From Deltaproteobacteria bacterium (GTDB lineage Bacteria > Desulfobacterota > GWC2-55-46 > DRQE01): 64,000 bases of DNA. This document shows, piece after piece, positions 1 to 38,217 of this stretch; within the stretch, counting starts at the first letter, position 1, and each line of letters starts with the position of its first letter. The DNA lies in contig JAOUFM010000003.1 of the NCBI GenBank assembly GCA_029858205.1, positions 210,936 through 274,935 on the forward strand. Reading direction: 5' to 3'. The notes below the pieces were generated by a model. The model was not told where the DNA came from and made no database searches. It saw only the letters and a list, made by a program, of their open reading frames with translations. The position numbers were made by a program, and so were the translations under genes.

Positions 1-470
1 CGCCTCATACCTTCAGAAAACTCCAAATCATTGCACCAAACATCACAGCCAAACTCTTCATGCACTATCGCCGGGAACGGCGAGCCGGCATTCGCTATAT
101 CCATAACGCGGCTCGTTTTATATAATTTCATAAAATCCGTGGAAATGTAATGTTCGAGGCTTTTTTCAACAAAACCATCCCCATATATGCCCCTGTACGA
201 GGCATAATTGCTTTCGTGCCGCGTTATAAACCTCGCAAAGGCATCGACATCAACGCTATAGTCCACCGGAGGCAAACCAAACTTGACAAACTGCTCATGC
301 ACAGATTCAATATCGCTGGCAAGATCCCCGTCTATGGCTTGCTTTCCGGATTCCATAAAAATTTTGTAATTTTTCCTGGCGGCGACATAGTTACGGGCCT
401 TTTTCAGAAAAAACACCAGGGCCCTTTTAAACTTTCCCCACAAACCGTTCTTATCAGCACGCGTGGTCAC
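1..470 (-). CDS. Hypothetical protein, 3'-truncated at the window edge (possible methyltransferase-like enzyme). The long minus-strand ORF from a GTG near 470 runs off the window start; it is not in the ORF track.
   Basis: My translation of the reverse strand gives a continuous frame '...VTTRADKNGLWGKFKRALVFFLKKARNYVAARKNYKIFMESGKQAIDGD...MKLYKTSRVMDIANAGSPFPAIVHEEFGCDVWCNDLEFSEGMR' with no stop through coordinate 1. Its codon usage looks like protein. The start codon is uncertain. Confidence 0.35.
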   Translation of the reverse strand, partial: MTTRADKNGLWGKFKRALVFFLKKARNYVAARKNYKIFMESGKQAIDGDLASDIESVHEQFVKFGLPPVDYSVDVDAFARFITRHESNYASYRGIYGDGFVEKSLEHYISTDFMKLYKTSRVMDIANAGSPFPAIVHEEFGCDVWCNDLEFSEGMR

Positions 471-569
471 GATATCATCCGCTCTCCAGAATCAAGAAAC
501 CCTTTTCGAAAACACCCTGTCACCGCAAACCTGACACAAATCATACGCATCACAAGCCCTTTTACAACC

Positions 570-1847
570 TTATTCAAACCCGAGCCTTTCCAGAACCATC
601 ATCGCTTCTTCCCTGGCCCTGCCGATAGCATAATTATCATTCACCAACTTGTAACACTCTGCGCCTATGGCTGCGGCCTTAGCTTTATCAGTCAATAGTT
701 CGATTGTAGCTGCCGCAAACTCCTCGGGCGTATCGGCAATCAGGATATCCTTGCCGTGCGTAACATTTAACCCTTCCGCCCCGAGCGTCGTTGAAACCAC
801 CGGCACCTTACAGGCCCCGGCCTCCAGAATCTTAAACCTTGTTCCGGATTCGAATTTCAGCGGCACAAGCGCGATATCGACGTTACACAAGTACGGCAGC
901 ACCGATTCTACACGTCCGGCAATCGTTATTCTTTCATCTTTAACATCAGCCAACGTCTCGCAAGAACCGTTGCCAAGAATATAAAAACGCACTTGCGGGA
1001 TATCTTTCCAAACCAGCGGCATAACTTTTTCTATAGTCCAACGCGCGGCCTCTTCCATCGGACTGTTTTTCCCAAAACTGCCCGCCAAGTATACAGACGG
1101 CCTTTGTATACCGGGATTTTCATGACGTCCCGTATAATTAGCCATGTCTATGACATTCGAAAAAAGCATTACTTTATCTTTTCGCTCGGTAAGACCCTGA
1201 TAATACTCTTTATCCACATCAGAGACCGCAGTTGTAATATCGGCCAGGTTGGTCCACTCCGCTTCTTCCTTCTCCTTCGCCCTGCCTGCAGTCTCGGTTT
1301 TTTCTCTCACGTCCTTATCCACATGATACGCCAGGCCCCTTAAAAGAAATCTGGACCACACGCTATCCGTATCCACAACGACCCTGTACGCCGAATTTTC
1401 CTTTATATACTTCATCAAAGGATACGATATGTTCCCAAACCCAAGCCAGATAACATCGGCCTGCACGGAATCGGCCGTACGCAGCAAATCGTCAAAATCC
1501 ATCTTGCTTTCGTAATGCTGCAAAATATTTTTTCCCAATGCCTTGCGCCCAACAATATTTATCCCTCCAACAACTGTTCTGTGCAATTTGTGCCTCTTGC
1601 ATGACGGAGCCATAAAAAACTTTTTACATAATTTTTCATAATATTCCACAGCCCTGTCCCCGCCCATGTTTTCAGGCGTGACCCTTGAATAAAGATACAG
1701 CTCCGAAATGGCATTAAGCGCCTTTACGGAGTTCTCTATCCTCAGATACGGCCCTCCGGTTGCTGGATACCTCAACTCCTGGGTCGTAAAAAGTATTGCC
1801 GGGTTTTTTTTATTCATTATACGCCTGCCCTTATCGCGACCATACAC
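570..1847 (-). CDS. Glycosyltransferase family 1 (GT4-like retaining glycosyltransferase)
   Basis: C-terminal GT1 signature 'GTRFKILEAGACKVPVVSTTLGAEGLNV...ADTPEEFA' (E-X7-E region), 425 aa; it sits in a polysaccharide cluster. Confidence 0.75.
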   Translation of the reverse strand: MYGRDKGRRIMNKKNPAILFTTQELRYPATGGPYLRIENSVKALNAISELYLYSRVTPENMGGDRAVEYYEKLCKKFFMAPSCKRHKLHRTVVGGINIVGRKALGKNILQHYESKMDFDDLLRTADSVQADVIWLGFGNISYPLMKYIKENSAYRVVVDTDSVWSRFLLRGLAYHVDKDVREKTETAGRAKEKEEAEWTNLADITTAVSDVDKEYYQGLTERKDKVMLFSNVIDMANYTGRHENPGIQRPSVYLAGSFGKNSPMEEAARWTIEKVMPLVWKDIPQVRFYILGNGSCETLADVKDERITIAGRVESVLPYLCNVDIALVPLKFESGTRFKILEAGACKVPVVSTTLGAEGLNVTHGKDILIADTPEEFAAATIELLTDKAKAAAIGAECYKLVNDNYAIGRAREEAMMVLERLGFE

Positions 1848-1864
1848 CGTATACTTCGGATCAT

Positions 1865-2821
1865 TTAATACGCAAACAGCAAATAGGGGCGCGGCGGCTC
1901 AAAATAAGCGTACATGCCCCTGAACTCAATATGATAATCGCTTCTGAAAGAGCGTATTATGCGCGCGCACTCCCTGGCGTTCATATAATCGTGGTATATC
2001 GCGACGGCAAGTTTCGGCTTTAGCGATTCGATGGTATTTCGCGCTCCACGCAAGGCTTCCATTTCGTATCCTTCGATATCTATCTTTACTATACCCGGGC
2101 CTTCGACACCGTATTCCCTGACAAGATTATCTATCGTTGTAAGTTCCACCTTCTGCCAGGCATCTTTCGGCGAAGCCTCGGCGACATATGAACTGCAGTT
2201 GCTAACGGCATCTTGATTTATATAACAATGGCCCATACGGCTGCCAAGCGCTTTGGCGACCACTTTATACTTGGATTCCCTTGCCGCTTTCCCGAGGGTC
2301 AATCCCAGGGCCTCTTCCATGGCGGGAAACGGTTCAACAGCTATAAGCATCCCCGCAAAGTTCTTTCTTAAGGCAAAAAGAGAGTAGAATCCTTCGAACG
2401 CGCCGGCATCCATGACCCAGCAAGCAGCAGTCAAATCAAACTGCGGATGGTCGTAAGACGAGGGGTTTTCCCTCCAATCATCAAAGACCTCGTGGTATAG
2501 CCAGGGCAGGTCTCCGGTAGGAATGTTTTTCGGCCAATAAAATTCGATATCGCCAACTCCCAGCAAAAAATGGTTGTCGTCAGCGCCTACGACATTGACC
2601 GGCGGCAGCAGTGCCGCACGCTCCGAAACATAGAGGGCGACATCCTCTCCTGTAAAATCATAGCGCTCGGGCCTGAAATCCTTATACCGGCGCAGGGCCA
2701 GTTCGGCTTCCCATCTGCCACGACAACGTCTATACAGCCTCTGGAGGCCGTTTTTAATCTGCATACTTTTCCCAATCAAGGACATAATCAACGCTGCGCT
2801 TGTTTTCGGCCCATCTGGCAA
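1865..2821 (-). CDS. FkbM-family SAM-dependent methyltransferase
   Basis: Hallmark FkbM motif 'VKIDIEGYEMEALRGA'. It is paralogous to 6265..7065 and 15173..15874. Confidence 0.75.
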   Translation of the reverse strand: MPDGPKTSAALIMSLIGKSMQIKNGLQRLYRRCRGRWEAELALRRYKDFRPERYDFTGEDVALYVSERAALLPPVNVVGADDNHFLLGVGDIEFYWPKNIPTGDLPWLYHEVFDDWRENPSSYDHPQFDLTAACWVMDAGAFEGFYSLFALRKNFAGMLIAVEPFPAMEEALGLTLGKAARESKYKVVAKALGSRMGHCYINQDAVSNCSSYVAEASPKDAWQKVELTTIDNLVREYGVEGPGIVKIDIEGYEMEALRGARNTIESLKPKLAVAIYHDYMNARECARIIRSFRSDYHIEFRGMYAYFEPPRPYLLFAY

Positions 2822-4460
2822 AGCTTTCTATTTCTGGAGGGTACTCCTCGGCGCCAAGCCGTATCGGCCCCTCCGGCATGCAACAGAGCGAACCGAAAAG
2901 CCGAACCTCCTTGAAACCGCGCCGTATTACCGGTTTAAGCATGCTCAACCTGATCGGTTTCAAGGCAAAAATGGCGTAATAATAATACAGCGCCAACCTG
3001 ATCTTTTCTTCAGTCATCGGCGGGATGTTATGCAGGTTCCTCAAAAGGTCTCTATACTCCTGTCTGCTTTGCGGATCGATTGTAAACCCCAGGCCCGCGT
3101 ACCGTCCGCTTGCCGCGGTTATGACATTATTGCCAAAACACGGCAGCTCCATGCCAATACTGCCCCTGACGGTAATGCCGAAGTCGGAATGTCTGATCCA
3201 CGAAAGCGGGTTAACGGGCGTGGAGGGATAAATCAGCTTCACGTGATCCGGCAGATCGCCAAACGCCTCCATCACTATCCGTGCCTCCTCATATTCGGCT
3301 TTGTCGCGGTATTCCCCGCGCCAGGCATTCGACGGGTGCAGCTTAAGCAGCCAGTTCACGTGCTTGTTCTCGATAGCCACGCCAACGGTATCTACCAGCC
3401 ACTCCGCATAATTCGTATAAAGCTCCTTCTCGAAGAAATACAGTGTGTCGTAGAGAATGTGGCTAAATATCGTCGCAATGCGTTTTTGCGGCGAAAGACC
3501 GTACTTTTCCACCAGATGTTGCCTGCTTGCAAGTTCCGTATTCCGAAAATTGCGCTTTGACAAGTGCCATTTATCGGAATATCTCTCGGCAAAATTAGTT
3601 TCGACAAACTCCCTGACCGCTTCTATTTTTATGTCTTTATCGTTTACGATTCTCTCGAACGTTTCGCTCGTGACGGTATTGTGATGCATGCCGTCGTTTG
3701 CCTTATTTCTTCTCTGTATAAGAACTCTGTCGTCGATGACCGACAAATTCGTCTTTAGCACGTCCACGCCCTTATTGAGCATATAATAATAAAAAATGCC
3801 ATGCTCGTCATGAAAGGCTTCGGAGGTTATGTACACATCGGGTATTTCCAGAAAATCTTGCGCATGATGGGCAAATTTCAGGTTTTGGCAAAGCAGCCTC
3901 CTTATGCCTTCTTTCTCAGCAGCGGAAGCGTAGTCGATATTTCCGCGCAGTTGATACCGTGAATACCCCGATAACGTTATCTTACCTACCGGAAGCCCTT
4001 TATAAGTGAATTCCAGCAACTCCTTCATGTCGCAAGAACCGAGAAGTTCATCCACCTTCTGCAACAATTCTGGCGGCAAATCCTTCTTGTCAAAAAAATC
4101 GTCGATAAACCAAAAATTCCTGCAGCCAAACAGCCTGTAATATTTATTTTGGATAACCGATGTTTTCCTCGTCAACACTATAGGACGGTAACCGTTCCTC
4201 AAAAGCGGTTGAATCAGAACGGACCACCTTGTTGCCCATATAATCTCGTGATCGTTTCCGTCGATCATTACCGTTTTTTGCGGCTCTTGGCAGGCCCCGG
4301 CATCCGCAGTACTCGTGCCGCGCACCAGTTTCGAAAACTCACGAAACTGTATCTCGTCGAATATCCGCTGCCTGCCTCTCCCAAATAGATGCAAAAGATG
4401 CGCTACGGCCATTGCTCCCTTACCTTTTCCCTTGGTCGTCATAAAAGCCGCACACGGCAT
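2754..4460 (-). CDS. Capsule-polysaccharide-biosynthesis-type transferase (Capsule_synth/KpsS-KpsC-like family); candidate Kdo or nonulosonic-acid transferase
   Basis: 568-aa cytoplasmic protein with a conserved C-terminal block 'KLHPSNAWRGEY...IYPSTPVNPLSWIRHSDFGITVRGSIGMELPCFGNNVI' that recalls capsule biosynthesis (KpsS/LpsZ-type) proteins. It lies immediately downstream of the CMP-sugar synthetase gene. Confidence 0.4.
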   Translation of the reverse strand: MPCAAFMTTKGKGKGAMAVAHLLHLFGRGRQRIFDEIQFREFSKLVRGTSTADAGACQEPQKTVMIDGNDHEIIWATRWSVLIQPLLRNGYRPIVLTRKTSVIQNKYYRLFGCRNFWFIDDFFDKKDLPPELLQKVDELLGSCDMKELLEFTYKGLPVGKITLSGYSRYQLRGNIDYASAAEKEGIRRLLCQNLKFAHHAQDFLEIPDVYITSEAFHDEHGIFYYYMLNKGVDVLKTNLSVIDDRVLIQRRNKANDGMHHNTVTSETFERIVNDKDIKIEAVREFVETNFAERYSDKWHLSKRNFRNTELASRQHLVEKYGLSPQKRIATIFSHILYDTLYFFEKELYTNYAEWLVDTVGVAIENKHVNWLLKLHPSNAWRGEYRDKAEYEEARIVMEAFGDLPDHVKLIYPSTPVNPLSWIRHSDFGITVRGSIGMELPCFGNNVITAASGRYAGLGFTIDPQSRQEYRDLLRNLHNIPPMTEEKIRLALYYYYAIFALKPIRLSMLKPVIRRGFKEVRLFGSLCCMPEGPIRLGAEEYPPEIESFARWAENKRSVDYVLDWEKYAD

Positions 4461-4469
4461 CCGGTGGCG

Positions 4470-5189
4470 TCACGTAGCATATTCCTCTATCCTCACAATT
4501 CCTTTTGTCACAAGCGCTTCGATTAAATACAAATCCATCATGCCATCCAAGTTAACGCTTCTCTCCTTTGGCATGACAAAAGGAAGCGTATGCTCAGGCA
4601 TGAAAGTACGTTCCCTGAGAAGAACGCCTGTATGGGTAATATAAAAGGCCCCGTTCAGGGCGTAAACCTCGGGCAAAGACTGCCTCGCAACCAGGGATTC
4701 CTTTCCGAGATAAGACTTAAGATACCCGCCATCTATCTTCTGTATCTTGTCCGGATGCGGGGAGTCGTGCCTCACGACACTTGCAACGGCATCGGCTTTA
4801 CCGGTATTCTTTTCAAGAAGACCGCAGACCCCCTCCGCGTCGGCAAGGGTTCTAAGCGGGGACGTTGTCTGAAGAAGAAATATATACGCGTCATTTATAC
4901 TCATCTCTTCCATCACATGCAACACAACATCGACGGTTCTTGCCGTATCCGTAGCGAGATGCGCTGGCCTAGGCGCCGGCATATTAACCCCGTATTTCTT
5001 CGCCAACTCATGCATTTCTGCATCATCTGTCGACACAACCACACTGTCCACATACCTGCATGCCTTCGCAAGCTTTATTGTTCTTTCAAGTAACGTATCA
5101 TTTCCAAGGCGGTACAGGTTCTTTCGCGGGATCCCTTTGCTTCCCCCGCGAGCAGGAATAAGAGCATACACTGTTTTACCGTTTAACAT
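4470..5189 (-). CDS. neuA: Acylneuraminate cytidylyltransferase (CMP-nonulosonic acid synthetase, NeuA family)
   Basis: N-terminal 'ALIPARGGSKGIPRKNL' cytidylyltransferase motif, about 239 aa; neuB and neuC are in the same cluster. Confidence 0.75.
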   Translation of the reverse strand: MLNGKTVYALIPARGGSKGIPRKNLYRLGNDTLLERTIKLAKACRYVDSVVVSTDDAEMHELAKKYGVNMPAPRPAHLATDTARTVDVVLHVMEEMSINDAYIFLLQTTSPLRTLADAEGVCGLLEKNTGKADAVASVVRHDSPHPDKIQKIDGGYLKSYLGKESLVARQSLPEVYALNGAFYITHTGVLLRERTFMPEHTLPFVMPKERSVNLDGMMDLYLIEALVTKGIVRIEEYAT

Positions 5190-6249
5190 TTTTAAATATC
5201 CCTATCATCCTGCTGCCGAGATTATGCCTGTATATATACTCCGGCGTTACAAAATCGAACAATCCGTCAGGGTCTCCATGGCCATGGTACGGGTACTCGC
5301 CTGACATATAGCTCTTTATGTTGTCTATTTCGGTAATTACCGTTTCAAACCGTACGCAATCAAATCCGTGGATTGCCATCAGATGTTTCAAGCTCTTCGG
5401 CGAAAAATGAGACAGATGCTTCCACGCAAACACGGGCGACATCTCCCGCATGAGCCTTGTTGCCAGCGATTCGACATTTGGAACAAGTATGAACAACAAC
5501 CCGCCGTCTTTCAAAAGCCCCTTAACCGCCCTGATTATATTGTGAACATCATAAAGATGTTCGAGCACACTCCACATGGCCACGCAATCATACCCCGAAC
5601 CGAGCCTCGAGGCGTCAAGGGCCTCGAATGTGGAATTTATGAACTGGACCCCTTTTGCATCGGCGTAGATATCGGCATACCTCTCGTTTACATCGACCCC
5701 CACGCAGCTCTTCCAGCCCCTTTCAAACGCAACCTCCAGAAACACTCCAGCGCCGCAACCTATGTCCATTATTTTTTCAATTGACGGAGGATCGAGCTGT
5801 TCTATAAGCTCAAGCCCGTAACTATATTTTATCCTGTCTATTTCCTTTTGAAGCGGTTGGGTATAGATGTCGGAGGCCGTTTTATCGTCGGCATATATCT
5901 TCATGGCCTCGTCAAACTTTACGCGCGGGTTCAAATACCTGTGCGTGCAATCGCAGCACCTATAGATATCGAGGGCAAAGCGCGTAAGAAATTTTTCCCT
6001 GTCCTTCGACGAACACGCCGGGCACGTATCCACATCTTCCCACACCCCACTGATACACTGATAGCGTTCGGCCCCGGTATCTACAACCACCTTCGCATGT
6101 TCTCTTATCAAATATCCGCTCGAAGGCCGCCCTTGCCCTGAACGGTTAGTCTCGGCATGGAACTTCTTAGCGCCAAACCGCAGATTACCATCGAACTCAT
6201 TCTTGGCCTTTACACATTCCTCGAAATTCTTAATATCGATTTTCTTCAT
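5176..6249 (-). CDS. Class I SAM-dependent methyltransferase with an N-terminal Cys4 zinc-ribbon
   Basis: Motif I 'DIGCGAGVFLE'; N-terminal 'CPAC...CCDC'; 357 aa. Confidence 0.65.
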   Translation of the reverse strand: MKKIDIKNFEECVKAKNEFDGNLRFGAKKFHAETNRSGQGRPSSGYLIREHAKVVVDTGAERYQCISGVWEDVDTCPACSSKDREKFLTRFALDIYRCCDCTHRYLNPRVKFDEAMKIYADDKTASDIYTQPLQKEIDRIKYSYGLELIEQLDPPSIEKIMDIGCGAGVFLEVAFERGWKSCVGVDVNERYADIYADAKGVQFINSTFEALDASRLGSGYDCVAMWSVLEHLYDVHNIIRAVKGLLKDGGLLFILVPNVESLATRLMREMSPVFAWKHLSHFSPKSLKHLMAIHGFDCVRFETVITEIDNIKSYMSGEYPYHGHGDPDGLFDFVTPEYIYRHNLGSRMIGIFKNVKR

Positions 6250-6264
6250 ACCACCCTTTTGTTT

Positions 6265-7065
6265 TTAAATCGGCACGGCAAAAAGATGCACCCGCCTGTC
6301 TATCTCCGTCTTGCCATCATAGACTACCGGCTCCTCATTATCCGCCCATTGAATCCAAACCTTATATTCGGTTATATCGATAAAATCGAGAAGATCCTTT
6401 ATCTTTGCATTATAATTCTGTAAGGCATCGGTATGCACTTCTATTACAAGTTTTGGTTTCCGCTTTAGGATTTCACCGGCCCCGCGCAGCACCTCAACCT
6501 CATACCCCTCCACGTCCACCTTCAATACGGTAGGCTTACAATCCAGATAATCGTCCAGACGCACAGAATCGACCACCAAACCCGTCCCGAAAGCGCTTTT
6601 CATAACAAAAGAATTGGACGTATTCCCGATCCGAAGCCGTCCCGTGACCACACCAACCGCCTTCTCCTCGACAAGTACATTTTTCAGACGATTAATTTCC
6701 ATATTTTTGCGCAAAATACGCGCGTTATTCGGCAACGCTTCGAAGGTAACCACCTTGCCGCTCTCCCCGACCCAGTTCGACAACAATATAGTTGTGCATC
6801 CATGATGCCCACCACATTCAAGAACAACATCTCCCTTGCCAACGATATTATCCCGCACGAACCTCATTTCAATCCAGTCAGGATCGGTACAACCAACATC
6901 GTACCATTCTCGGCCGGACGTATCTCCTATCAGAAAATCAAAAGTAACGCCCTCGATAGTTTTTCTCTTGATGTATGGCCTGAAAAACAAAGCGCGCAAT
7001 TCGCCGATTTTAGATAACATGCCCCAACACAGGCTTCTGAACCAATACAGAAGACTTTTTTTCAT
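6265..7065 (-). CDS. FkbM-family methyltransferase
   Basis: 'VLKVDVEGYEVEVLRGA' FkbM motif. Confidence 0.75.
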   Translation of the reverse strand: MKKSLLYWFRSLCWGMLSKIGELRALFFRPYIKRKTIEGVTFDFLIGDTSGREWYDVGCTDPDWIEMRFVRDNIVGKGDVVLECGGHHGCTTILLSNWVGESGKVVTFEALPNNARILRKNMEINRLKNVLVEEKAVGVVTGRLRIGNTSNSFVMKSAFGTGLVVDSVRLDDYLDCKPTVLKVDVEGYEVEVLRGAGEILKRKPKLVIEVHTDALQNYNAKIKDLLDFIDITEYKVWIQWADNEEPVVYDGKTEIDRRVHLFAVPI

Positions 7066-7080
7066 CTATACAATTCTCCT

Positions 7081-7802
7081 TTACTTTATAGCAAGGAACC
7101 CCTCGAAACAAACATATTTAAAAACCGTAATTACATCCACAAATCCGGCGCGCTTTAGCAAGTCGGCATTTCCCTGCGACGAAAACGGCTCCAGAACACC
7201 CTTTAAACTGCGCGCCTTGGACACTATTTCTTCGGCCGTATATCCCTGTCTGAGTTTATATTCATTATACAATCCGGTCATGATATCCTGAAACCGAGCA
7301 TCATTGGCTCTGACCTTTTCAAACAGAATAAAGGCCCCTCCCCAATTGAGGTTTTCATATATGCGGTTAAATATGTCCTGCCTTACGCGCGGCTTTACAA
7401 ACTGCAGTGTGTAGTAGGCCGTAAAGACATCGGCCTTCTCATAGTTATACTGGAATATATCGGCGGCCTCGAACTCGACATTTACAGCACTTGATTGTTT
7501 CTTCTTTTCCAGAGCCATCTTTATCATATCCGGCTCGATATCTATGCCTACGAACCTGGCCTCGGGCTTTGTGCTGTTATGCCGAGCGAGCTTCAGCGTC
7601 AACTCACCTGTCGATGTCCCGAGTTCATAGCATAAAGAATTTTTCCCGACAAAAAAATCGCTCAAATTACAGATCAACTCGTGCCCTTCGTTATAAAAGG
7701 GAACCGACCGCGAAACATGCTCATCGAAATTCTTGGCCACATCTCCTTTGAAGTTCCAGTTCGCATTGGCAGCCGTAAGACCGTCTCCGACACCGGACAT
7801 AT
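7081..7802 (-). CDS. CmoA-like class I SAM-dependent methyltransferase / carboxy-SAM-synthase-like enzyme. Start re-assigned to the ATG at 7802 behind a GAGAGGAGAGA Shine-Dalgarno; the 88-codon upstream extension in the ORF track is Arg-rich junk.
   Basis: 'NFDEHVSRSVPFYNEGHELI...CYELGTSTGELTLKL...GIDIEPDMIKMA...TLQFV' is colinear with E. coli CmoA ('[24 protein letters not shown]...'). Confidence 0.6.
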
Positions 7803-7906
7803 TATCTCTCCTCTCTGTCTTCTTTGATATTACACGCTCGCGCAACGGACCACAACAGCGCATTGTCTGCCGCCCTCGCGGTACAAAAACCCTTGCAACA
7901 TGTTTT

Positions 7907-8689: not shown

Positions 8690-8744
8690 TATTTGCCTCT
8701 CGATTGCCGTATTTATCTAAGCCAACGGCGCACATCGGCTTGTA

Positions 8745-9893: not shown

Positions 9894-9920
9894 ATAATAT
9901 CCGGCTCCACCTCGCTACAC

Positions 9921-10970
9921 TCATTTCAAGTCTTTAAGACTTATGAATTCGTCGGCACAAACGCAACGCTTAAGTTTTTTTCCATAAAGCTTTTTCAGCA
10001 TGCTTGCCGGTATGCCTATATTCGGCTTTTTAAGAATAAGATCTCCTTCTTCGAGAATTTTCCCTGCCGGAAGATCTGTTCTCGGCACGACACTTCTGCG
10101 AAATATTTCCCGTATCGTCTCAAGTTCTTTTGCCACAGAGTTTTTTTTAACTGGATTTAGCGCGGCTATTTCCAAAAATCTTACTCCCTTTGCCAATTGC
10201 GCCAACTCTTCCATGGTTACGGACGCTATCACGTCGGGGCCAAACATATGCCGCGACATCGTGACATGCACCTCGACAAACCTGGCGCCAAGCGCACAGG
10301 CGGCAAGCCCTGGGTAAATCGTCCCGGAATGGTCCGACAATCCGACCGGGCAACCAAACTGCCGGCTATACCCGGCAAGAACGTTAAGCCCGATTTTTTC
10401 CGGCGGAGTCGGGTACATCGTCGTCGCCTGGAATAAGGAAAAAACAGTTTTTTCCCTTTTTAAAAACGCGACAACTTTTTTTATTTCCCTGTCGGTGCTC
10501 ATGCCGGTAGAGATCAAAACCGGTTTTCGCGTGGCAACTATCCGTTCCAACATTGCCTCATTACCCAATTCTCCGGACCCTATTTTCCACGCGGCAATAC
10601 CTGCCTTTTGCAACAGATTTACGGCCTCTAACGAAAACGGCGAACTGAGAAAATGCAGTCCCTTGCTGCGCGCATACTTTGCCAAACCGCACCATTGCTC
10701 CGGCGTAAACTCCATCCTCTTCCAATAATCATATCTATTTCTGTCCTGCCTGCTAAACTTAACCCTAAACGGTTCATCCAACGTGCTTTCCGCATCGGCG
10801 ATATGGGTTTGGAACTTAATGGCATCCACGCCGGCCTCTGCCACGACATCTACGAATGCATACGCCTGACCGAGGCTCCCGTCGTGCGTTTGCGCGACCT
10901 CGGCAATCAAAAAACACGCCTTGCAGCCTCTTTCGAAATACTTCCCGATATTTTGCATTTTCCGCACCAC
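9921..10970 (-). CDS. neuB: N-acetylneuraminate (nonulosonic acid) synthase, NeuB family
   Basis: NeuB TIM-barrel motifs ('FLIAEVAQTHDGS', 'AGVDAIKFQTH') plus a C-terminal SAF domain. Confidence 0.85.
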   Translation of the reverse strand: MVRKMQNIGKYFERGCKACFLIAEVAQTHDGSLGQAYAFVDVVAEAGVDAIKFQTHIADAESTLDEPFRVKFSRQDRNRYDYWKRMEFTPEQWCGLAKYARSKGLHFLSSPFSLEAVNLLQKAGIAAWKIGSGELGNEAMLERIVATRKPVLISTGMSTDREIKKVVAFLKREKTVFSLFQATTMYPTPPEKIGLNVLAGYSRQFGCPVGLSDHSGTIYPGLAACALGARFVEVHVTMSRHMFGPDVIASVTMEELAQLAKGVRFLEIAALNPVKKNSVAKELETIREIFRRSVVPRTDLPAGKILEEGDLILKKPNIGIPASMLKKLYGKKLKRCVCADEFISLKDLK

Positions 10971-12257
10971 CTATACCACCTTTTGAGGCTGAGTCCAGAC
11001 ATAGGGCAATTTTACGGCACCAAGGCTATGGTATGACCAATTAACATTGGAATACCCCTTTGACGATGGCTCTATAGCGAAATCTAGCGCCGGCCTTATG
11101 CCGTCCTGCAAAGACGGCGCGTACATACTGAGCCAGGTAAAATATCTGCCGGGGCGCAAATAGTTCGGGGATATATCGAGCCCAAACTTGTACATTCCAG
11201 GCGCCATGACAGCCTCCATCACATCTGACAGAACCGCAAACACCTTTGCGTCCATCGAATCAAGTACCCCGAAATGTATTTCCAAAAGATCCAACTGTTG
11301 CCTCACTTCAACATAGATATCTATATGTATCGATTCTTCCTCTTCATACTGTGACCGCGCTTTGCCAATCTTATCCGAGCAAATGGCTTTTACAAAAACC
11401 GCCTTGGCGGTTTTGGGATTTACTTTATGCAAAGGTCTTTCCAAAAGCCTTAAATCATATACGCCATCCTCCCTCGCAGACAGGCCGCAGCCGGAAGGAT
11501 CTTTAACATAATGTTCTATCACTTCATGCGTTACCCCGGACATAGTCACAACGCCTTTAGTAAGCTCTATGCATCTCGTCGTGAGAGATGCTACCGCGCT
11601 CATGTTATGGCTTACAAAAAGGACGGTCCGCCCCCCCTCTGCCACCTCACCCATCTTACCAAGACATTTCTTCTGAAATCCGGCATCACCGACGGCAAGA
11701 ACTTCATCAACTACCAGTATCTCCGGCTCAAGATGCGCAGCAACTGCAAAGGCCAAACGCACATACATGCCGCTCGAATACCGTTTAACAGGCGTATCGA
11801 GAAACTTCTCTATCTCCGAGAACGCCACTATCTCGTCAAACTTGCTTTTTATCTCAGCCCTCGTCATTCCAAGAAGAGCGCCGTTTAAAAGTATATTTTC
11901 CCTTCCGGTAAGTTCCGGATGAAAACCCGTGCCGACCTCGAGAAGGCTCGCAACGCGCCCCTTCATCGTAATACGGCCGGACGTGGGCTCAGTTATCCTC
12001 GAAAGTATTTTCAAGAGCGTACTTTTACCTGCGCCGTTACGGCCTATAATACCTACAACCTCTCCTTCCTTTACGTTGAAGGAAACGTCCTTCAACGCCC
12101 AAACGATATTATCTTCTTCCTTTTTAGGAGCGCCAAAATTCTTGAACGGCGCAGTCAACGTCTGTACTATTTCATCGCGAAGGCTACCGTAAGCCATCCT
12201 TTCGCCGATCCTGTATTGTTTAGATATATTTCTTACTTCTATTATATTCTTAGACAT
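10971..12257 (-). CDS. wzt: Polysaccharide ABC exporter ATP-binding protein Wzt, with a C-terminal extension
   Basis: Walker A 'GIIGRNGAGKSTLL', ABC signature 'YSSGM', Walker B 'ILVVDE'. An extra C-terminal domain of about 170 aa follows the nucleotide-binding domain. Confidence 0.85.
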   Translation of the reverse strand: MSKNIIEVRNISKQYRIGERMAYGSLRDEIVQTLTAPFKNFGAPKKEEDNIVWALKDVSFNVKEGEVVGIIGRNGAGKSTLLKILSRITEPTSGRITMKGRVASLLEVGTGFHPELTGRENILLNGALLGMTRAEIKSKFDEIVAFSEIEKFLDTPVKRYSSGMYVRLAFAVAAHLEPEILVVDEVLAVGDAGFQKKCLGKMGEVAEGGRTVLFVSHNMSAVASLTTRCIELTKGVVTMSGVTHEVIEHYVKDPSGCGLSAREDGVYDLRLLERPLHKVNPKTAKAVFVKAICSDKIGKARSQYEEEESIHIDIYVEVRQQLDLLEIHFGVLDSMDAKVFAVLSDVMEAVMAPGMYKFGLDISPNYLRPGRYFTWLSMYAPSLQDGIRPALDFAIEPSSKGYSNVNWSYHSLGAVKLPYVWTQPQKVV

Positions 12258-12264
12258 ACTCGTA

Positions 12265-13089
12265 TCAGACCACGTCCGAGAAATAACGCTCTACGCGGCG
12301 GAAATAAAAAACACCGCTTACAAAAACCGCAAAACCGCATACGGCAGACACAGCCAGAGATGCCCAAGGAATATCCACATGACCCAGAACAGCAGCCCGG
12401 ATTGCCTCTATGACACCGGACATCGGGTTTAGCATCAATATCATCTTATACTTTTCCGATAAAAGACCTGCCGGATAAATAACCGGGGTCACGAACATCC
12501 ATATCTGCACGAAAAACGGTATTGCATACTGAATATCCCTGTACCTTACGTTTAGCGCCGAAAACCAAAGCCCGAACCCAACAGCATTCATCATGACGAA
12601 AGACATCAATATCGGCACAAGAAAAATTCCCAAACCAGGCTTTACGCCGTAATAAACCATTATCGCGCCAAACACGAGCGCCGAGATAAAGAAATCCAGA
12701 AACACGGACACGGCGGAACTCGCAGGCATGATGATTCGCGGAAAATATATTTTTGTTATAAGATTTTTTTCAGAAACGACACTGCTGGTAGATTGCGTAA
12801 GCACTGCAGCAAAGTACTGCCACGGTAAAAGACCGGCATACACGAAAACCGGGTACGGTACGCCCTCCGATGGCATCCCCGCGAACCTGCCGAAAATTAC
12901 CGAAAAAACGACCATGGTCAGCACCGGCTGCAGCACGGCCCACACTATGCCGATAACAGCCTGCTTATACTTTACCTTTACATCCCTCCACGCAAGAAAA
13001 TACAAAAGCTCCCTGTACTTCCATATCTCGCGAAGGTCGACCGGTATAAACCCTTTTCTGGGTTCTATGACAGTAACATTATCAGCCAT
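12265..13089 (-). CDS. wzm: ABC-2 type polysaccharide exporter permease Wzm
   Basis: About six predicted transmembrane helices, 274 aa; adjacent to and translationally coupled with wzt. Confidence 0.8.
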   Translation of the reverse strand: MADNVTVIEPRKGFIPVDLREIWKYRELLYFLAWRDVKVKYKQAVIGIVWAVLQPVLTMVVFSVIFGRFAGMPSEGVPYPVFVYAGLLPWQYFAAVLTQSTSSVVSEKNLITKIYFPRIIMPASSAVSVFLDFFISALVFGAIMVYYGVKPGLGIFLVPILMSFVMMNAVGFGLWFSALNVRYRDIQYAIPFFVQIWMFVTPVIYPAGLLSEKYKMILMLNPMSGVIEAIRAAVLGHVDIPWASLAVSAVCGFAVFVSGVFYFRRVERYFSDVV

Positions 13090-13092
13090 AAA

Positions 13093-14034
<942 letters not shown>

Positions 14035-15171
14035 TTAACCTACCGTCAATTTACTATCTGTCCAGGCTATGCCTTTTTTGGCGAGTATCTTTCTGCCTTC
14101 ACCCTTTGAATCGACACCTGCGGCCTCAAGGTCATAATCCACCATTATCTTGACCAGATCCTTGAATGTTATCTCAGGGGTCCACCCGAGTTCCTTTTTG
14201 GCCTTTCTTATGTCAGCCTTAAGCACATCGACCTCTGTAGGCCTTAAATAACGGGGATCGAGCTCTATGATTGCGTATCCCGGCTTTAGACCGTCGGCAA
14301 TGCCTTTTTTAAGAGACTTTATTACTCCCTTTTCCTTAATGCCCTTGCCCTTCCATTCGATCTCTATTCCCGCATATTCGAATGCATGGTTCAAAAAGTC
14401 CCTTACCGACCTTGTATCGCCCGTGCCTATTACAAAATCCCCGGGCTTATCGTGCTGAAGGATGCGCCACTGGCATTCGACGTATTCGGGCGCAAACCCC
14501 CAGTCCCTTTTTGCGTCGAGGTTGCCAAGGTAAAGCTTTTTTTGCTTACCCGCGACTATCGCGGCAAGGGCGCGCGTGATTTTGCGCGTAACAAAAGTCT
14601 CGCCCCTTCTTGGAGATTCGTGGTTAAAAAGTATCCCGTTCGAGGCGAACATGCGGTAGCCTTCGCGGTAGTTTACGGTCATCCAGTACGAGTACACCTT
14701 TGCCGCGGCGTAAGGGCTCTGCGGCCGAAATACCGTTTTCTCGCTTTGCGGAGGAAGCGCGCTCCCAAACATTTCACTCGAAGACGCCTGATAAAAACGC
14801 GCAGGCACTCCGCTTCTCCTGACTGCCTCGAGAAGGCGTGTTGTGCCAAGTCCGGTGATGTCGCCTGTGTATTCGGGTATATCGAAACTCACGCGAACGT
14901 GGCTCTGGGCGCCGAGATGATAAATCTCGTTTGGCGCAATATTGTAAACCAGATTAACGAGCTGTCCCGAGTCCGAAAGGTCTCCGTAGTGAAGTAAAAG
15001 TTTTGTCCCCGGCAGGTGACGGTCCTTATATATATGATCTATCCTGTGGGTATTGAAGGTACTGGCGCGCCGTATTATGCCGTGCACCTCGTAGCCCTTG
15101 CTTAAGAGAAGTTCGGCAAGGTAGCTTCCGTCCTGCCCTGTTATTCCCGTTATAAGCGCGCGCTTTCCCAT
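14035..15171 (-). CDS. gmd: GDP-mannose 4,6-dehydratase
   Basis: '[33 protein letters not shown]' is the canonical Gmd N-terminus. Confidence 0.9.
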
Positions 15172-15172
15172 T

Positions 15173-15874
15173 CTATTCTCCCGGATTGTTTTTTATTATA
15201 GTAGGCCTCTCGGCCCAGCGTTTCTTATCGACAAAAACGGTGTTAACGAACGTATCGCCGCAGACGATATATCCATTACGCTCCATCACCTTGAATATTT
15301 CATCGTTCTTCCTGTTCTCGTTATAATAAACGGTCTCTATGCAAAACACCTCGGGTCTGTACTTCTTGAAATCGAAACTCTCGAGTATCTCGACCTCGAG
15401 GCCTTCGACGTCAATGGTTACAAGGTTCGGGCATTTATCGAAATATTTTTCGATTATCCCGTTTATGGGCACGACATTTATCTTCAACACCTTCGGCTCG
15501 CCGCTGCCAATACTCTTGTAACGCTCCATGGTTTCCCTGCTGCAGGTGCTAAGTGTTGTGCCGCCCGGTATAACGTAAAAATCAATGACCCCTGCCTTTG
15601 CCGCAACGCCGACATTAAGATTAACGTCCCTTCTTCTCTTAAAACCGAACTTGGCGAAAAGCTCCGGGTCTGGCTCCACGTTCACGCCCTTGCATCCGTT
15701 CTTGTAAAAATAGTACGTGTTACTGAACTTAACGGGGTCGTGCGCGCCGACATCAAGATAAGTGGGTTTACGTATCTTTAACGCCCTCAAGATGAAATCC
15801 GCAAGCACGTCCTCGCCTGCCTGGGCGTAAGATCTCTTATAATCTCTTTTGAATATATTCCTTATGAATTTCAT
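15173..15874 (-). CDS. FkbM-family methyltransferase
   Basis: '[16 protein letters not shown]' motif. Confidence 0.7.
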
Positions 15875-15891
15875 CTCATTGAACTCCGGCC

Positions 15892-17217
15892 CTACGCCGG
15901 CACCACCTTTTTGCTTTTAAATTTCCTTGCCGCGCCTCTTGCATCCACCACTATCTTGCTGTTAACAGCTATCATCTTATAGTCGTAACACGTATGGTCC
16001 GTGGATATGACGACGCAATCGTATTTCTTTAACGCCGCGGGGGTAAGTTTCACGGACTTAAGTTCGATTGCATGGTGCCGCATCCTCGGCATCTTCGGCA
16101 CATAGGGGTCGTTATAATCCACCTTTGCGCCAAGCCCCTTTAGCATTTCTATGATATGCACGGAAGGAGACTCCCTCATGTCATCCACATCTTTTTTATA
16201 CGCCGCTCCGAGCACAAGGATACGCGAGCCTTTGACGGACTTGCCTTCCTTGTTTAGCGCTGTACCGACCTTCCCAATGACATAAGAAGGCATGGAGGTG
16301 TTTATCTCCCCGGCAAGCTCTATAAAGCGCGTTGCGAACTCGTACTCCTTCGCCTTCCACGTAAGGTAAAACGGGTCTATGGGAATGCAATGCCCGCCAA
16401 GGCCCGGGCCCGGATAAAAGGCCTGGAACCCGAAGGGCTTGGTCTTCGAGGCATCGATGACCTCCCATATGTCAATGCCCATCTTATCGGTAAGCATCTT
16501 AAGCTCGTTTACAAGCGCTATATTGACGCAGCGATATATATTCTCGAGAAGCTTTGTCATCTCTGCCGCGCGCGTGGTAGAGACCTCTACCACCTTATCT
16601 ATAATCTGCGAGTACAACAGACTGCCCGCTGCCAGACAATCCTTTGTAACACCGCCAACCACCTTGGGAATCGTCTTTGTCGAAAAATCCTTTCTCCCCG
16701 GATCTTCCCTTTCGGGCGAGAATACAAGGAAGTAATCTTTGCCGACACGAAGCCCTGTTTTTTCGAATTCCGTAAGAAGTATTTCGTCGGTTGTTCCGGG
16801 ATAAGTAGTGGACTCAAGAGAAACAAGCTGGCCTATTCTAAGGCGCTCCACTATCTCCTTTGTCGTACCGACAACATAGCTCATATCCGGCTCGCGCATC
16901 TTACCCAGCGGCGTAGGCACGCATATGATGACCGCATCCGGCTCCTTAAGCCTGTTCATGTCAGCGGTCGCGGCAAACTTCTTTCCCTTGACATGTTTTG
17001 CGATATCCCCTGCGGCTATGTGCTTTATGTAAGACCTTCCGGCATTGAGCGCCTTTACTTTGGACGAGTCAACATCGAACCCGAGCACCCTGAAGCCTTC
17101 GTCGCAGAACCTGAGTACCAGCGGCAACCCGACATAACCAAGCCCGATAACGCCTATGAGCGCGCTTCGTTTTTCTATTTTTTCAAGCAGTTTTTCTTTT
17201 ACGATATTTTTCGCCAT
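15892..17217 (-). CDS. Nucleotide-sugar dehydrogenase (UDP-GlcNAc/ManNAc 6-dehydrogenase family, WbpA/TviB-like)
   Basis: '[13 protein letters not shown]' Rossmann motif, catalytic 'GGHCIPID', 441 aa. Confidence 0.75.
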
Positions 17218-17253
17218 AGCACCTCATTTAAAGCCGTTTCTCAGGATTTTTTC

Positions 17254-17919: not shown

Positions 17920-18050
17920 GCAATGAACTGGCCGCGCGCAAAAAATTAGTAATTTACATTTGCCGGGGTTTTATTGTATGGTATATTACTTAAAATTCCC
18001 CGTGCTGTTTTATTAAAAAATATTCCAACTTCGCTATCTGAAAAGTAAAT

Positions 18051-18080
18051 TTGGCCATGCCAGTCTTTTTATGCTACAAT
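18051..18080 (+). promoter_or_regulatory. Candidate sigma-70 promoter for the 5-gene cassette: -35 TTGGCC (18051-56), 18-nt spacer, extended -10 TGcTACAAT (18072-80).
   Basis: Read directly from the sequence, about 22 nt upstream of the ATG at 18103; the leader is short with a weak SD. Confidence 0.3.
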
Positions 18081-18102
18081 AAAAGATACGGGTATATCCA
18101 AC

Positions 18103-20238: not shown

Positions 20239-20248
20239 GGGCCCCGCT

Positions 20249-20587: not shown

Positions 20588-20589
20588 AT

Positions 20590-20775: not shown

Positions 20776-20779
20776 GCAC

Positions 20780-21364: not shown

Positions 21365-21377
21365 AACGACCCACACC

Positions 21378-38174: not shown

Positions 38175-38217
38175 TTTTCAAACTGCTCCAACACAACGAT
38201 TTTTTTAACTTGCCGGT

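Follow-up and report, generated by a model that had tools for sequence, protein, structure and literature searches.

The first 17,217 positions of the window, a 64,000-nucleotide stretch of a Deltaproteobacteria contig, fall in a genuine, large gene cluster for a surface polysaccharide that includes a branch for a sialic-acid-like sugar. Two of its genes, one CmoA-like and the other encoding a 357-aa methyltransferase, look by sequence like a TglE/TglF-type pair of carboxy-SAM synthase and carboxymethyltransferase, and because this pair recurs in glycan loci together with a CMP-synthetase and a transferase, the locus product is predicted to carry a carboxymethylated nonulosonic acid. The best overall explanation, to which we give about an even chance, is an ABC-exported heteroglycan with a TglE/TglF-type carboxymethylated nonulosonic acid, most plausibly as a cap. 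If true, the locus may place a carboxymethyl group on a sugar; to our knowledge such a group has never been reported on a glycan.

The row is a single series of minus-strand genes with small gaps or overlaps between them (all window coordinates below are on this strand). Every gene that an earlier sequence-only reading had listed for this colinear glycan row of about 17 kb is present. Pfam and NCBIfam searches with each gene recover NeuC, a synthase of the NeuB family, a synthetase for a CMP-ulosonic acid, Gmd and an Fcl-like reductase, a dehydrogenase of UDP-HexNAc type, a GT4 enzyme, the Wzm/Wzt pair and six methyltransferase-like genes. A MarR-type, EPS-associated-like regulator gene on the right side (17254–17919; HTH_24, and 61.7 bits to TIGR04176 MarR_EPS with a cut-off of 88) stands at the head of the row and is probably part of it. 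The left window edge cuts the locus within a class-I methyltransferase-like gene, whose 5′ part, recognized by its translation, is at 3–470. The public contig L084 is 100% identical over an overlap of 11,817 bp, with no mismatches, and extends the locus leftward by 9,413 bp; the full 311-aa gene lies there at 11348–12283 and has a weak match to Methyltransf_11. The row forms the right-hand 17–18 kb of a locus that is operon-like and at least 26.6 kb long. The extension encodes an aminotransferase resembling the LegC family, three glycosyltransferases and two B12 radical-SAM enzymes, along with two more methyltransferase-like genes, and another SDR gene begins where the known sequence ends. The unusual methyltransferase density noted earlier is borne out as an unusually high number of SAM enzymes: window and extension together have eight methyltransferase-like and two B12 radical-SAM genes. 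There are at least five glycosyltransferases at the locus, one of them the predicted ulosonate transferase. The enzyme at 570–1847 (Glyco_trans_1_4, 83.5 bits) is a glycosyltransferase as proposed but belongs to CAZy family GT4, which is what Pfam 'group 1' denotes, and not to GT1. Its start is probably at 1817, the public contig being annotated with the 415-aa form, and it shares 46% identity with the GT4 enzymes of related loci L001 and L002.

Several enzymes account for sugar supply. The hydrolysing UDP-HexNAc 2-epimerase of NeuC/LegG type (8745–9893) scores 349.9 bits with TIGR03568 (cut-off 235.9), a model that we take to include LegG-type enzymes as well, and only 68 bits with the WecB model. 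The NeuB-family nonulosonate synthase, which has an SAF domain (9921–10970; PF03102, 212 bits), scores 283 bits with NeuB_NnaB (cut-off 400) and 198 bits with PseI; its best solved relative is NeuB of N. meningitidis (E 4e-47), and it is not a KdsA or DAHP synthase homologue. The CMP-ulosonic-acid synthetase of NeuA/PseF/LegF type (4470–5189; CTP_transf_3, 71.9 bits) has PseF as its best equivalog-level match (116 bits; cut-off 206), and its gene shares 14 nt with the upstream methyltransferase gene. Of the proposed Neu5Ac-type route the nonulosonic-acid branch stands, but the identity of the sugar as Neu5Ac is not established, because both NeuB and the cytidylyltransferase score below their equivalog cut-offs. 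The proposed Gmd/Fcl pair is present as GDP-mannose 4,6-dehydratase (14035–15171; TIGR01472, 526 bits, cut-off 415) and an Fcl-like GDP-4-keto-6-deoxymannose epimerase/reductase (13093–14031), for which GDP-L-fucose synthase is the top NCBIfam match (313 bits, cut-off 500); the two would yield a GDP-6-deoxyhexose, probably fucose, and an FkbM methyltransferase gene adjoins them. An NDP-sugar 6-dehydrogenase of UDP-HexNAc type (15892–17217; TIGR03026, 427 bits, cut-off 190), a HexNAc-uronic-acid dehydrogenase in agreement with the UDP-HexNAc 6-dehydrogenase named earlier, would also be part of sugar supply; UDP-ManNAc dehydrogenase models give it 245–268 bits and TviB 201 bits, all under their cut-offs. 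The reported absence of LegC and PseC holds inside the window but not beyond it, where a DegT aminotransferase gene lies ∼0.9–2.0 kb past the left edge (in L084) and best matches the LegC family among NCBIfam models (348 bits, cut-off 420), followed by PseC (274 bits). Together with genes for a WbuC-like cupin and a methyltransferase it forms a trio that is kept in L001, L002 and L040, apart from the NeuB genes, and that suggests an amino-dideoxy sugar.

The CmoA-like gene occupies 7081–7800, the 326-aa ORF at 7081–8061 being over-extended, and encodes a TglE-type CmoA paralogue and predicted carboxy-SAM synthase. The protein shares the fold of E. coli CmoA, aligns with it over its full length (97 bits to 1im8 and 4gek) and conserves the TLQF and EK motifs, Tyr39 and Glu164, although it is only about 30% identical, scores 159 bits with TIGR00740 (cut-off 193) and has Tyr in place of Asn132. 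It shares 59% identity (E 8e-110) with the Pseudomonas entomophila TglE orthologue, the first gene of the 3-thiaglutamate (tgl/pma) cluster, where orthology was assigned by synteny; TglI of that cluster reaches 444.5 bits (E 1e-133) with the thiaGlu_TglI equivalog, whose cut-off is 450. The family forms a single tight clade of ∼239-aa proteins with ∼30% identity to E. coli CmoA, in which nonulosonate-type members are 58.7% identical to tgl-type members and 60.8% identical among themselves, and 49 of its 80 loci lie in a context that is neither nonulosonate nor tgl. The position of Arg199, which binds the carboxylate in E. coli CmoA (PMC3663124), is Ala or Ser in the family, with an Arg one position later that is missing in 3 of 29 members.

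The partner methyltransferase (5176–6249, 357 aa; Methyltransf_23, 88.9 bits) has the layout of TglF, an N-terminal CxxC...CxxC zinc ribbon (here CPAC...CCDC) followed by a UbiG-like class-I methyltransferase. It is not CmoB-like (18 bits), and its family has no Arg or Lys that is conspicuously invariant. Identity to the P. entomophila TglF orthologue is only about 25%, confined to the methyltransferase core (E 2e-11), so that it would need a different acceptor, with a sugar taking the place of the peptide thiol. Between contexts the synthase is kept at about 60% identity while the partner drops to about 20%, the pattern expected of a shared cofactor-maker with substrate-specific transferases. 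TglE, to which synthesis of the rare cofactor carboxy-SAM is assigned, and TglF perform a carboxymethylation step, and the transferase has been shown to act in vitro with carboxy-SAM (10.1101/338681; PMC9016710; PMC10491745). We note that the two window proteins are probably not O-methyltransferases.

The window-type methyltransferase was found in eight glycan loci, at 63–68% identity. A window-type cytidylyltransferase (55–62% identity) accompanies it in all eight and a KpsC-like transferase in six, and these loci are distributed among Alpha- and Gammaproteobacteria, Campylobacterales, Bacteroidetes and one contig labelled Actinomycetota. The partner gene is directly downstream of the CmoA-like gene in most related glycan loci, as it is in tgl clusters, whereas in the window the second FkbM gene separates the two. 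The window also differs from tgl clusters in its glycan context, with NeuB, cytidylyltransferase and glycosyltransferase genes, and in having no scaffold peptide, PEARL, MNIO or protease.

Homologues, an AlphaFold model and gene context identify the protein encoded at 2754–4460 as a diverged Capsule_synth-like (KpsC-type) GT-B glycosyltransferase, in line with the sequence-only reading. The NCBI start at 4412 gives 552 aa, against 568 aa for the long ORF. The protein itself has no Pfam match, even at E≤10, and no direct PDB sequence match; 16 of 42 homologues match PF05159, and the model (pLDDT 90.5) has a GT-B fold with the highest target-normalised TM-scores, about 0.5, to KpsC (GT107), its best structural match. 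Residues K357, H359 and P360 of a KxHP motif are invariant, a motif common to sialyltransferases and retaining Kdo transferases (PMC12887879), and CTP_transf_3 and NeuB genes adjoin the transferase gene in all four homologue contexts examined. The protein is most likely a CMP-nonulosonate transferase. As predicted for the window enzyme, WbbB (GT99), which adds the beta-Kdo cap in Raoultella terrigena and Klebsiella O12, is a CMP-ulosonic-acid-dependent GT-B enzyme with a (K/R)xHP motif, and both belong to Wzm/Wzt loci in which Wzt has a carbohydrate-binding domain (PMC12887879, PMC9445017). WbbB and KpsC use Kdo, whereas the donor sugar in the window should be the nine-carbon product of NeuB, and the window protein is without a coiled-coil ruler or fused polymerase modules. 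KpsS1 (GT118) of Acinetobacter baumannii, about 30% identical to E. coli KpsS, is a retaining pseudaminic-acid transferase described as related to WbbB and KpsC (PMC12887879); it is a case of this superfamily handling nine-carbon sugars. In contrast to KpsS1, the window protein, of about 550 aa, falls in a separate family that has at least 848 cluster representatives.

Wzt (10971–12257; ABC_tran) is an ATPase with a C-terminal carbohydrate-binding domain, and the Wzm permease is encoded at 12265–13089 (ABC2_membrane, 66 bits). The isolated Wzt C-terminus matches Wzt_C weakly, and the best PDB match, 8dku/7k2t, which we take to be full-length A. aeolicus Wzt, covers query residues 51–378, past the ATPase into the C-terminal part (E 4e-63). 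No Wzx or Wzy domain was found by Pfam or NCBIfam among the listed window genes or in the 9.4-kb extension, consistent with the ABC-transporter-type locus proposed earlier; no initiating transferase or ligase was seen in the 26.6 kb of this incomplete locus. Wzt proteins bearing a carbohydrate-binding domain export capped chains (PMC9445017), so the domain implies export of a capped chain, and ulosonic-acid caps are known on ABC-exported O antigens (PMC9445017, PMC12887879). The domain is 40–47% identical between loci sharing the methyltransferase/cytidylyltransferase/transferase module, and it is possible that these share a cap. By analogy, the nonulosonic acid may be the chain-ending cap, although a methyl cap like that of A. 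aeolicus would fit just as well.

From the gene families, their synteny and the homology to the TglE orthologue and KpsC, we infer a chemistry, an acceptor and a cap role as follows. NeuC and NeuB would make a nonulosonic acid, and the TglE-type enzyme would turn SAM into carboxy-SAM, from which the zinc-ribbon methyltransferase would put a carboxymethyl group (+58 Da) on the nonulosonic acid. The co-evolving cytidylyltransferase would activate the modified sugar, and the KxHP-bearing GT-B enzyme would move it onto the glycan. The lipid-linked heteroglycan would be built in the cytoplasm and exported via Wzm/Wzt, with the modified nonulosonic acid most plausibly being the non-reducing terminal cap that Wzt recognises.

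A simpler alternative is a Neu5Ac-containing, fucosylated, heavily O-methylated glycan in which the CmoA-like protein and its partner act as conventional SAM methyltransferases. On paper the NeuC, NeuB and cytidylyltransferase genes amount to a complete Neu5Ac route, the row has three bona fide FkbM genes, Wzt proteins that bear a carbohydrate-binding domain are known to go with methyl caps (PMC9445017), and the CmoA-like protein is under the CmoA cut-off without Arg199 at the aligned position. We nonetheless consider it rather unlikely, given the close identity to the TglE orthologue, a family tree that does not separate tgl-type from glycan-type members, and the failure of NeuB and the cytidylyltransferase to reach their equivalog cut-offs; the characterised CmoA-superfamily members in the literature searched all make carboxy-SAM and none transfers methyl (PMC10491745, PMC12783734). 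That the CmoA-like gene has a housekeeping role in tRNA modification and is in the row by chance is very improbable: JGI labels family members tRNA (cmo5U34) methyltransferase, but the low identity to canonical CmoA, its place beside the same methyltransferase and cytidylyltransferase in the eight loci from several bacterial lineages (with the transferase family in six) and the lack of any tRNA-related neighbour seen all speak against it.

The nine-carbon sugar could instead be legionaminic-type or another nonulosonic acid, with its pathway partly outside the window. The LegC-like and PseC-like scores of the DegT protein, the NeuB and PseF scores, the SDR gene at the end of the known sequence and the presumed LegG coverage of the NeuC model point this way, yet no LegB/PseB-type 4,6-dehydratase or LegH/PseH acetyltransferase appears across the 26.6 kb seen, and the DegT/cupin/methyltransferase trio, which is apart from the NeuB genes, fits a distinct amino-dideoxy sugar derived from what Gmd makes, for example a perosamine-like one; we regard this as a tentative possibility. 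We also consider it rather unlikely that, instead of an LPS O antigen, the locus makes a capsule, an exopolysaccharide or an S-layer glycan with the nonulosonic acid internal or polymeric. The MarR_EPS-like regulator, GT4 proteins that best match PEP-CTERM/XrtA-type transferases, the ability of KpsC-type enzymes to polymerise ulosonic acids (PMC12887879) and the fused ABC exporter that replaces Wzm/Wzt in the closest analogue, L057, are in its favor; however, the pairing of Wzm with a Wzt that bears a carbohydrate-binding domain is the signature of loci exporting capped O-polysaccharides (PMC9445017), and there is a single predicted ulosonate transferase among the glycosyltransferases.

The Rhizobium tropici and R. 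etli O-antigen loci have wzm/wzt, gmd, fcl and methylated 6-deoxy sugars, and the window locus is likewise ABC-exported with gmd and fcl. We know of no nonulosonic-acid branch, TglE-type gene or B12 radical-SAM genes in those loci. The general combination of sugars and ABC export had been thought uncommon, but is less exotic than that, since fucose-containing ABC-exported O-polysaccharides of rhizobia (PMC12595478) and ulosonic-acid-capped O antigens (PMC9445017, PMC12887879) are already known. The 2-O-methylation of LPS fucose in rhizobia is documented by a title in the reference list of PMC12595478.

The count of six methyltransferase-like genes, including three of the FkbM family, was correct, but O-methylation by the CmoA-like and 357-aa proteins is improbable. 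FkbM 1 (1865–2821; TIGR01444, 89.8 bits, cut-off 37.7), which probably starts at 2764 to give 299 aa, comes after the KpsC-like transferase gene, as it does in L001 (43% identity). FkbM 2 (6265–7065; TIGR01444, 88.5 bits) is particular to the window locus, with no counterpart in the related loci compared, and FkbM 3 (15173–15874; PF05050, 85 bits; TIGR01444, 41.3 bits against the same cut-off of 37.7) is directly upstream of gmd. The FkbM and other methyltransferases may attach O-methyl groups or turn the new carboxylate into a methyl ester. A 260-aa protein encoded at 7907–8689 is weakly methyltransferase-like (Methyltransf_24, 23.2 bits, below the cut-off of 26.3); no PDB relative of it was found, and a partial homologue is present in L057.

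Minus-strand genes run in an unbroken row from position 17,919 down to the start of the window, separated by gaps of 0 to ∼100 nt and including two overlapping pairs in the ORF listing. The row (window 1–18000) has a G+C content of 46–50%, compared with 50–54% in most of 18000–64000; its GC skew is strongly negative, consistent with minus-strand coding and possibly with horizontal acquisition. Pfam and NCBIfam bear out the gene inventory of the sequence-only reading. From the left, the row encodes a GT4 enzyme (570–1847), three FkbM methyltransferases (1865–2821, 6265–7065 and 15173–15874), a 568-aa protein without a Pfam match (2754–4460), a cytidylyltransferase matching Pfam CTP_transf_3 (4470–5189), a Pfam Methyltransf_23 protein (5176–6249), a CmoA-like protein identified through NCBIfam (7081–7800, with its true start at 7800), a 260-aa protein weakly similar to Pfam Methyltransf_24 (7907–8689), NeuC (8745–9893), and a NeuB-family synthase with an SAF domain (9921–10970). 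The remaining genes of the row encode Wzt, Wzm, an Fcl-like reductase, Gmd, an NDP-sugar dehydrogenase and a MarR-type regulator. Further sugar genes were not found in window 18–55 kb, which contains housekeeping genes, and an Rfam scan of 1–20,000 reported no RNA family.

The gene at 3–470 continues past the window edge, so the locus is cut by the window. An overlapping public contig, L084, was retrieved by exact look-up of the 415-aa form of the GT4 enzyme; the same look-up with NCBI products P0001 and P0121 matched no contig. L084 aligns to window 1–11,817 with zero mismatches and reaches 9,413 bp beyond the left edge; a 42-mer from the far end of this extension had no exact match among metagenome contigs. 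Three glycosyltransferases are encoded on the extension, two of GT4 and one of GT2, along with two B12-binding radical-SAM proteins (L084 16857–18623 and 19804–21171, or 5.0–6.8 and 8.0–9.4 kb left of the window). It also completes the cut gene, whose methyltransferase-like product is 311 aa long, and carries genes for a class-I methyltransferase of 249 aa, a cupin resembling WbuC and a DegT aminotransferase, for which NCBIfam gives the LegC family as best match; the contig breaks off within an SDR gene, of which only the start is present. The radical-SAM pair sits among the glycosyltransferase genes; with scores far under cut-off in each case, it most resembles BchE and C- or P-methyltransferases, including those of RiPPs. 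Such cobalamin-dependent methylases are, to our knowledge, unusual in glycan loci, and their presence suggests C-methylation.

At ∼239 aa, the CmoA-like protein is one of a highly uniform family whose members are ∼59% identical to one another and ∼30% identical to the CmoA proteins of E. coli and H. influenzae. Searches of species-representative genomes with peptide patterns specific to the family find it at 550 or more loci, spread over many phyla. Against the canonical CmoA model TIGR00740 it scores 159.4 bits, below the equivalog cut-off of 193.3. In E. coli CmoA the carboxylate is bound by Arg199 (PMC3663124); this residue aligns with Ala196 here (Ala or Ser across the family), and the family has an arginine one position further on in phmmer, MAFFT and hhalign alignments alike. 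The same +1 shift is seen in the TglE orthologue of the Pseudomonas entomophila 3-thiaglutamate (tgl) cluster, assigned by synteny, to which the window protein is 59% identical (E 8e-110).

Seven of the 80 best family loci, from Trinickia species, Pseudomonas entomophila, Paraherbaspirillum and a Burkholderiaceae MAG, share a layout in which the family member comes first, followed by a zinc-ribbon methyltransferase, an HExxH membrane protease, an MNIO/DUF692 protein and a match to the thiaGlu_TglI equivalog (E 1e-133, 444.5 bits, just under the cut-off of 450). An ORF of ∼815 aa with no NCBIfam match is also present and is taken to be a LanB-like enzyme. This layout is the tgl cluster, and an eighth locus, from Sorangium, also scored as tgl-type. 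In the tgl pathway, TglE and TglF carboxymethylate a thiol by way of carboxy-SAM, and the transferase reaction has been shown in vitro (10.1101/338681; PMC9016710; PMC10491745). The family tree places the tgl-linked members within the rest; at 58.7%, identity between glycan-linked and tgl-linked members is about the same as inside the glycan-linked set (60.8%). Judged by these sequence relationships, the window protein probably makes carboxy-SAM. Phage CmoA homologues, some of them biochemically characterized, are only 30–38% identical and so lend the family no direct support.

About a quarter of the 80 loci examined adjoin nonulosonate genes. Forty-nine (L012, L034, L065 and L080 are examples) have neither a nonulosonate nor a tgl context; by eye, from translations, their neighbors include other methyltransferase-like proteins (one of them FkbM-like, in a cyanobacterium), a GT2 enzyme and membrane proteins. 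Because most members lie outside these two contexts, there may be uses of carboxy-SAM beyond the known ones. An AsnB-type glutamine amidotransferase (N-terminal MCG, ∼627 aa; cluster c627) is encoded no more than 6 kb from the synthase gene at 16 of the 80 loci, for instance at 12838–14718 of locus L070. By analogy with CmoY, the ligase of the phage carboxymethyl-cytosine system, this enzyme could amidate the new carboxylate; no such gene is present in the part of the window locus seen.

A zinc-ribbon, class-I methyltransferase is the next same-strand ORF after the synthase gene in 19 of the 80 loci and is encoded within 6 kb in 36. The window counterpart (5176–6249) resembles the TglF orthologue in having a CxxC…CxxC arrangement followed by a UbiG-like core, although the two are only 25% identical and align in the methyltransferase core alone (E 2e-11). 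Across contexts the synthases are ∼60% identical and the partners down to ∼20%, the pattern expected if a common cofactor-maker were to serve substrate-specific transferases. No arginine or lysine that might bind the carboxylate is invariant in the partner family.

For the 568-aa protein (2754–4460; 552 aa in the NCBI call), 151 of the candidates scored are homologues at E≤0.001, and with E≤1e-30 the family extends to at least 848 cluster representatives. The best 120 of the 151 are mostly annotated as hypothetical, a few having PF05159 (Capsule_synth) or a GT2 fusion. The label Capsule_synth-like given by the sequence-only reading is right in spirit, in that 16 of 42 homologues scanned singly match PF05159 (best E 1e-9), but the protein itself matches no Pfam model at E≤10, PF05159 included. 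In a 42-sequence alignment K357-x-H359-P360 is invariant, as are the acidic residues E198, D322, E376 and E422; a (K/R)xHP motif is the CMP-binding signature common to sialyltransferases and retaining Kdo transferases (PMC12887879). The AlphaFold model (pLDDT 90.5) retrieves GT-B enzymes generally in Foldseek searches, with the best target-normalized TM-scores (∼0.5) to the beta-Kdo transferase KpsC; a family profile run against PDB sequences returned KpsC only, below threshold (E 1.3). In all four homologue contexts inspected, the transferase gene adjoins a CTP_transf_3 gene with a NeuB gene nearby. The protein thus reads as a predicted CMP-nonulosonate transferase, and a function and motif can be proposed for a family of ∼550-aa proteins lacking a Pfam assignment.

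The nine-carbon sugar itself is less sharply defined. NeuC scores 349.9 bits against TIGR03568 (cut-off 235.9), a model not known to separate NeuC from LegG. The synthase is a genuine NeuB-family enzyme, as had been proposed, rather than a Kdo-8-P or DAHP synthase homologue: it matches the Pfam NeuB family and lies closest, among solved structures, to N. meningitidis NeuB and a pseudaminic acid synthase. Against the equivalog TIGR03569 it scores 283 bits, under the cut-off of 399.65. The cytidylyltransferase matches PF02348, and its best equivalog-level match is PseF (116 bits against 206). The reported absence of LegC and PseC is correct inside the window but not for the locus, as the DegT aminotransferase of the L084 extension scores 348 bits against the LegC-family model TIGR04181 (cut-off 420) and 274 bits against PseC. 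No LegB- or PseB-type dehydratase and no LegH or PseH acetyltransferase was seen in the 26.6 kb; Gmd and Fcl score 88–91 bits against the LegB model TIGR04180, for which the cut-off is 475. The cupin–DegT pair is kept in related loci away from their NeuB genes, which favors a separate amino-dideoxy sugar. Gmd is above its equivalog cut-off (526 against 415 bits), and Fcl is the best match for the reductase yet remains under cut-off (313 against 500).

A different supply route for the NeuB step is apparent in other loci, including L002 (3432–7510), L004 and L017 and also L008, L010, L040 and L051, none of which has NeuC. These encode a CBS-fused NDP-sugar dehydrogenase of ∼575 aa, a ∼265-aa protein in which a Nudix-like box can be made out by eye, and a short NeuB of 316–328 aa; L002 additionally has an HAD hydrolase. 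The dehydrogenase is present in every locus whose cytidylyltransferase is at least 47% identical to that of the window, a hint that a uronic acid could feed NeuB. We considered whether the dehydrogenase might feed the NeuB step and yield a dicarboxylic nine-carbon sugar, and set this aside, the support being correlative.

Window-type methyltransferases (63–68% identity) occur in eight loci, from Alpha- and Gammaproteobacteria, Campylobacterales, Bacteroidetes, a contig labeled Actinomycetota and an unassigned metagenome contig. All eight keep a window-type cytidylyltransferase (55–62%) and six the KpsC-like transferase (32–38%), whereas seven have a very different NeuB (26–31% identity) and no NeuC; the cytidylyltransferase therefore tracks the methyltransferase and not the NeuB synthase. 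Since the methyltransferase and cytidylyltransferase genes also overlap by 14 nt in the window, we infer that it is the nonulosonic acid that is modified, and no later than the CMP stage. Overall, the nearest analogue is locus L057, from an alphaproteobacterial MAG. Identities to the window proteins are 66% for its NeuC and 55% for its NeuB, 58% for both the dehydrogenase and the synthase, 67% for the methyltransferase, 62% for the cytidylyltransferase and 38% for the transferase; ManC, Gmd and an Fcl-like protein are encoded as well, and the exporter is of a fused ABC type. Formyltransferase-like and polysaccharide-deacetylase genes follow the cytidylyltransferase gene of L057 (13391–15141), which suggests that the N-acyl group of its nonulosonic acid is remodeled. 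Among cultured organisms, Chelatococcus sambhunathii S14 has a comparable locus of the nonulosonate type (L036), with NeuB at 52%, NeuC at 40%, the synthase at 62% and the cytidylyltransferase at 47% identity, and a partner methyltransferase at no more than ∼20%.

Wzm and Wzt are encoded by adjacent genes (PF01061, 66 bits; PF00005, 86 bits). The isolated C-terminus of Wzt gives a weak Wzt_C match (20.2 bits against a cut-off of 30.4). Its best solved relative is PDB 8dku/7k2t, taken here to be full-length Aquifex aeolicus Wzt, and this alignment covers query residues 51–378, past the ATPase domain, placing a carbohydrate-binding domain at the C-terminus (about residues 256–428). Neither a Wzx flippase nor a Wzy polymerase was seen in the 26.6 kb of this incomplete locus; an initiating polyprenyl-phosphate transferase and a WaaL ligase were likewise not seen there and may be elsewhere in the genome. 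We are confident of the gene content and transport type of the locus.

Transporters with a Wzt carbohydrate-binding domain export capped chains, the cap being methyl, methyl-phosphate or Kdo (PMC9445017). Capping could fall here to the KpsC-like transferase or to one of several methyltransferases; neither a kinase resembling WbdD nor a coiled coil was seen. The single ulosonate transferase is the natural analogue of the Kdo-capping WbbB; it is equally plausible that one of the many methyltransferases supplies a methyl cap. Between the window and two loci sharing the module, the carbohydrate-binding domain is 40–47% identical and the ATPase domain 61–65%. The Campylobacter O-methyl-phosphoramidate pathway likewise combines a cytidylyltransferase, methyltransferases and a large transferase; we rejected it for this locus, as genes for a glutamine kinase, an amidotransferase or a kinase are missing from the 26.6 kb seen.

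In the ulosonate-cap reading, the TglE-type carboxy-SAM synthase, the zinc-ribbon carboxymethyltransferase, a dedicated cytidylyltransferase and the KpsC-like transferase would form a four-gene module that makes and installs a carboxymethylated nonulosonic acid, here as the cap read by Wzt. The chances that the glycan carries a carboxymethyl group at all seem to us evenly balanced. That the group is on the nonulosonic acid, and that this sugar acts as the cap, is put forward tentatively, and we are similarly reserved about the broader proposal of a widespread, horizontally mobile module with this function.

The general architecture is already known: fucose-containing, ABC-exported O antigens occur in rhizobia (PMC12595478), 2-O-methylation of LPS fucose is documented there by a title in the reference list of the same paper, and ulosonate caps and nonulosonate transferases of the KpsC/KpsS superfamily have been described (PMC12887879). 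The new element is the nonulosonate branch with an embedded TglE/TglF-type pair, together with the two B12 radical-SAM genes, since no link of CmoA or carboxy-SAM to glycan or nonulosonic-acid synthesis was found in the searchable literature. Carboxy-SAM is rare, and we know of only a handful of uses. If the proposal is correct, a fifth biological use would join those in tRNA, 3-thiaglutamate, microcin C and phage DNA, and the sugar modification would be one not described before; O- or N-carboxymethylation would enter carbohydrate chemistry as a new reaction type, and a conserved gene family now annotated as 'tRNA methyltransferase' or 'methyltransferase domain protein' would be accounted for. 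The locus also offers a candidate for a new kind of O-antigen cap.

Beside the glycan genes lies a divergent plus-strand row (18103–24161) encoding an FtsH-like AAA and M41 protease (173 bits, far below the FtsH cut-off of 600), a 112-aa ORF, an NrdG-like radical-SAM activase, and a 927-aa protein with an Hsp70/MreB-like ATPase domain confined to residues 551–783. PADLOC analysis of the neighboring odd genes gave only AAA-level similarity to IetA. A second stretch of low G+C (0.46) lies at window 36–42 kb, and at 36453–42043 on the minus strand are genes for three successive proteins of 563–588 aa, two without a Pfam or PADLOC match and one with C-terminal TPR repeats.
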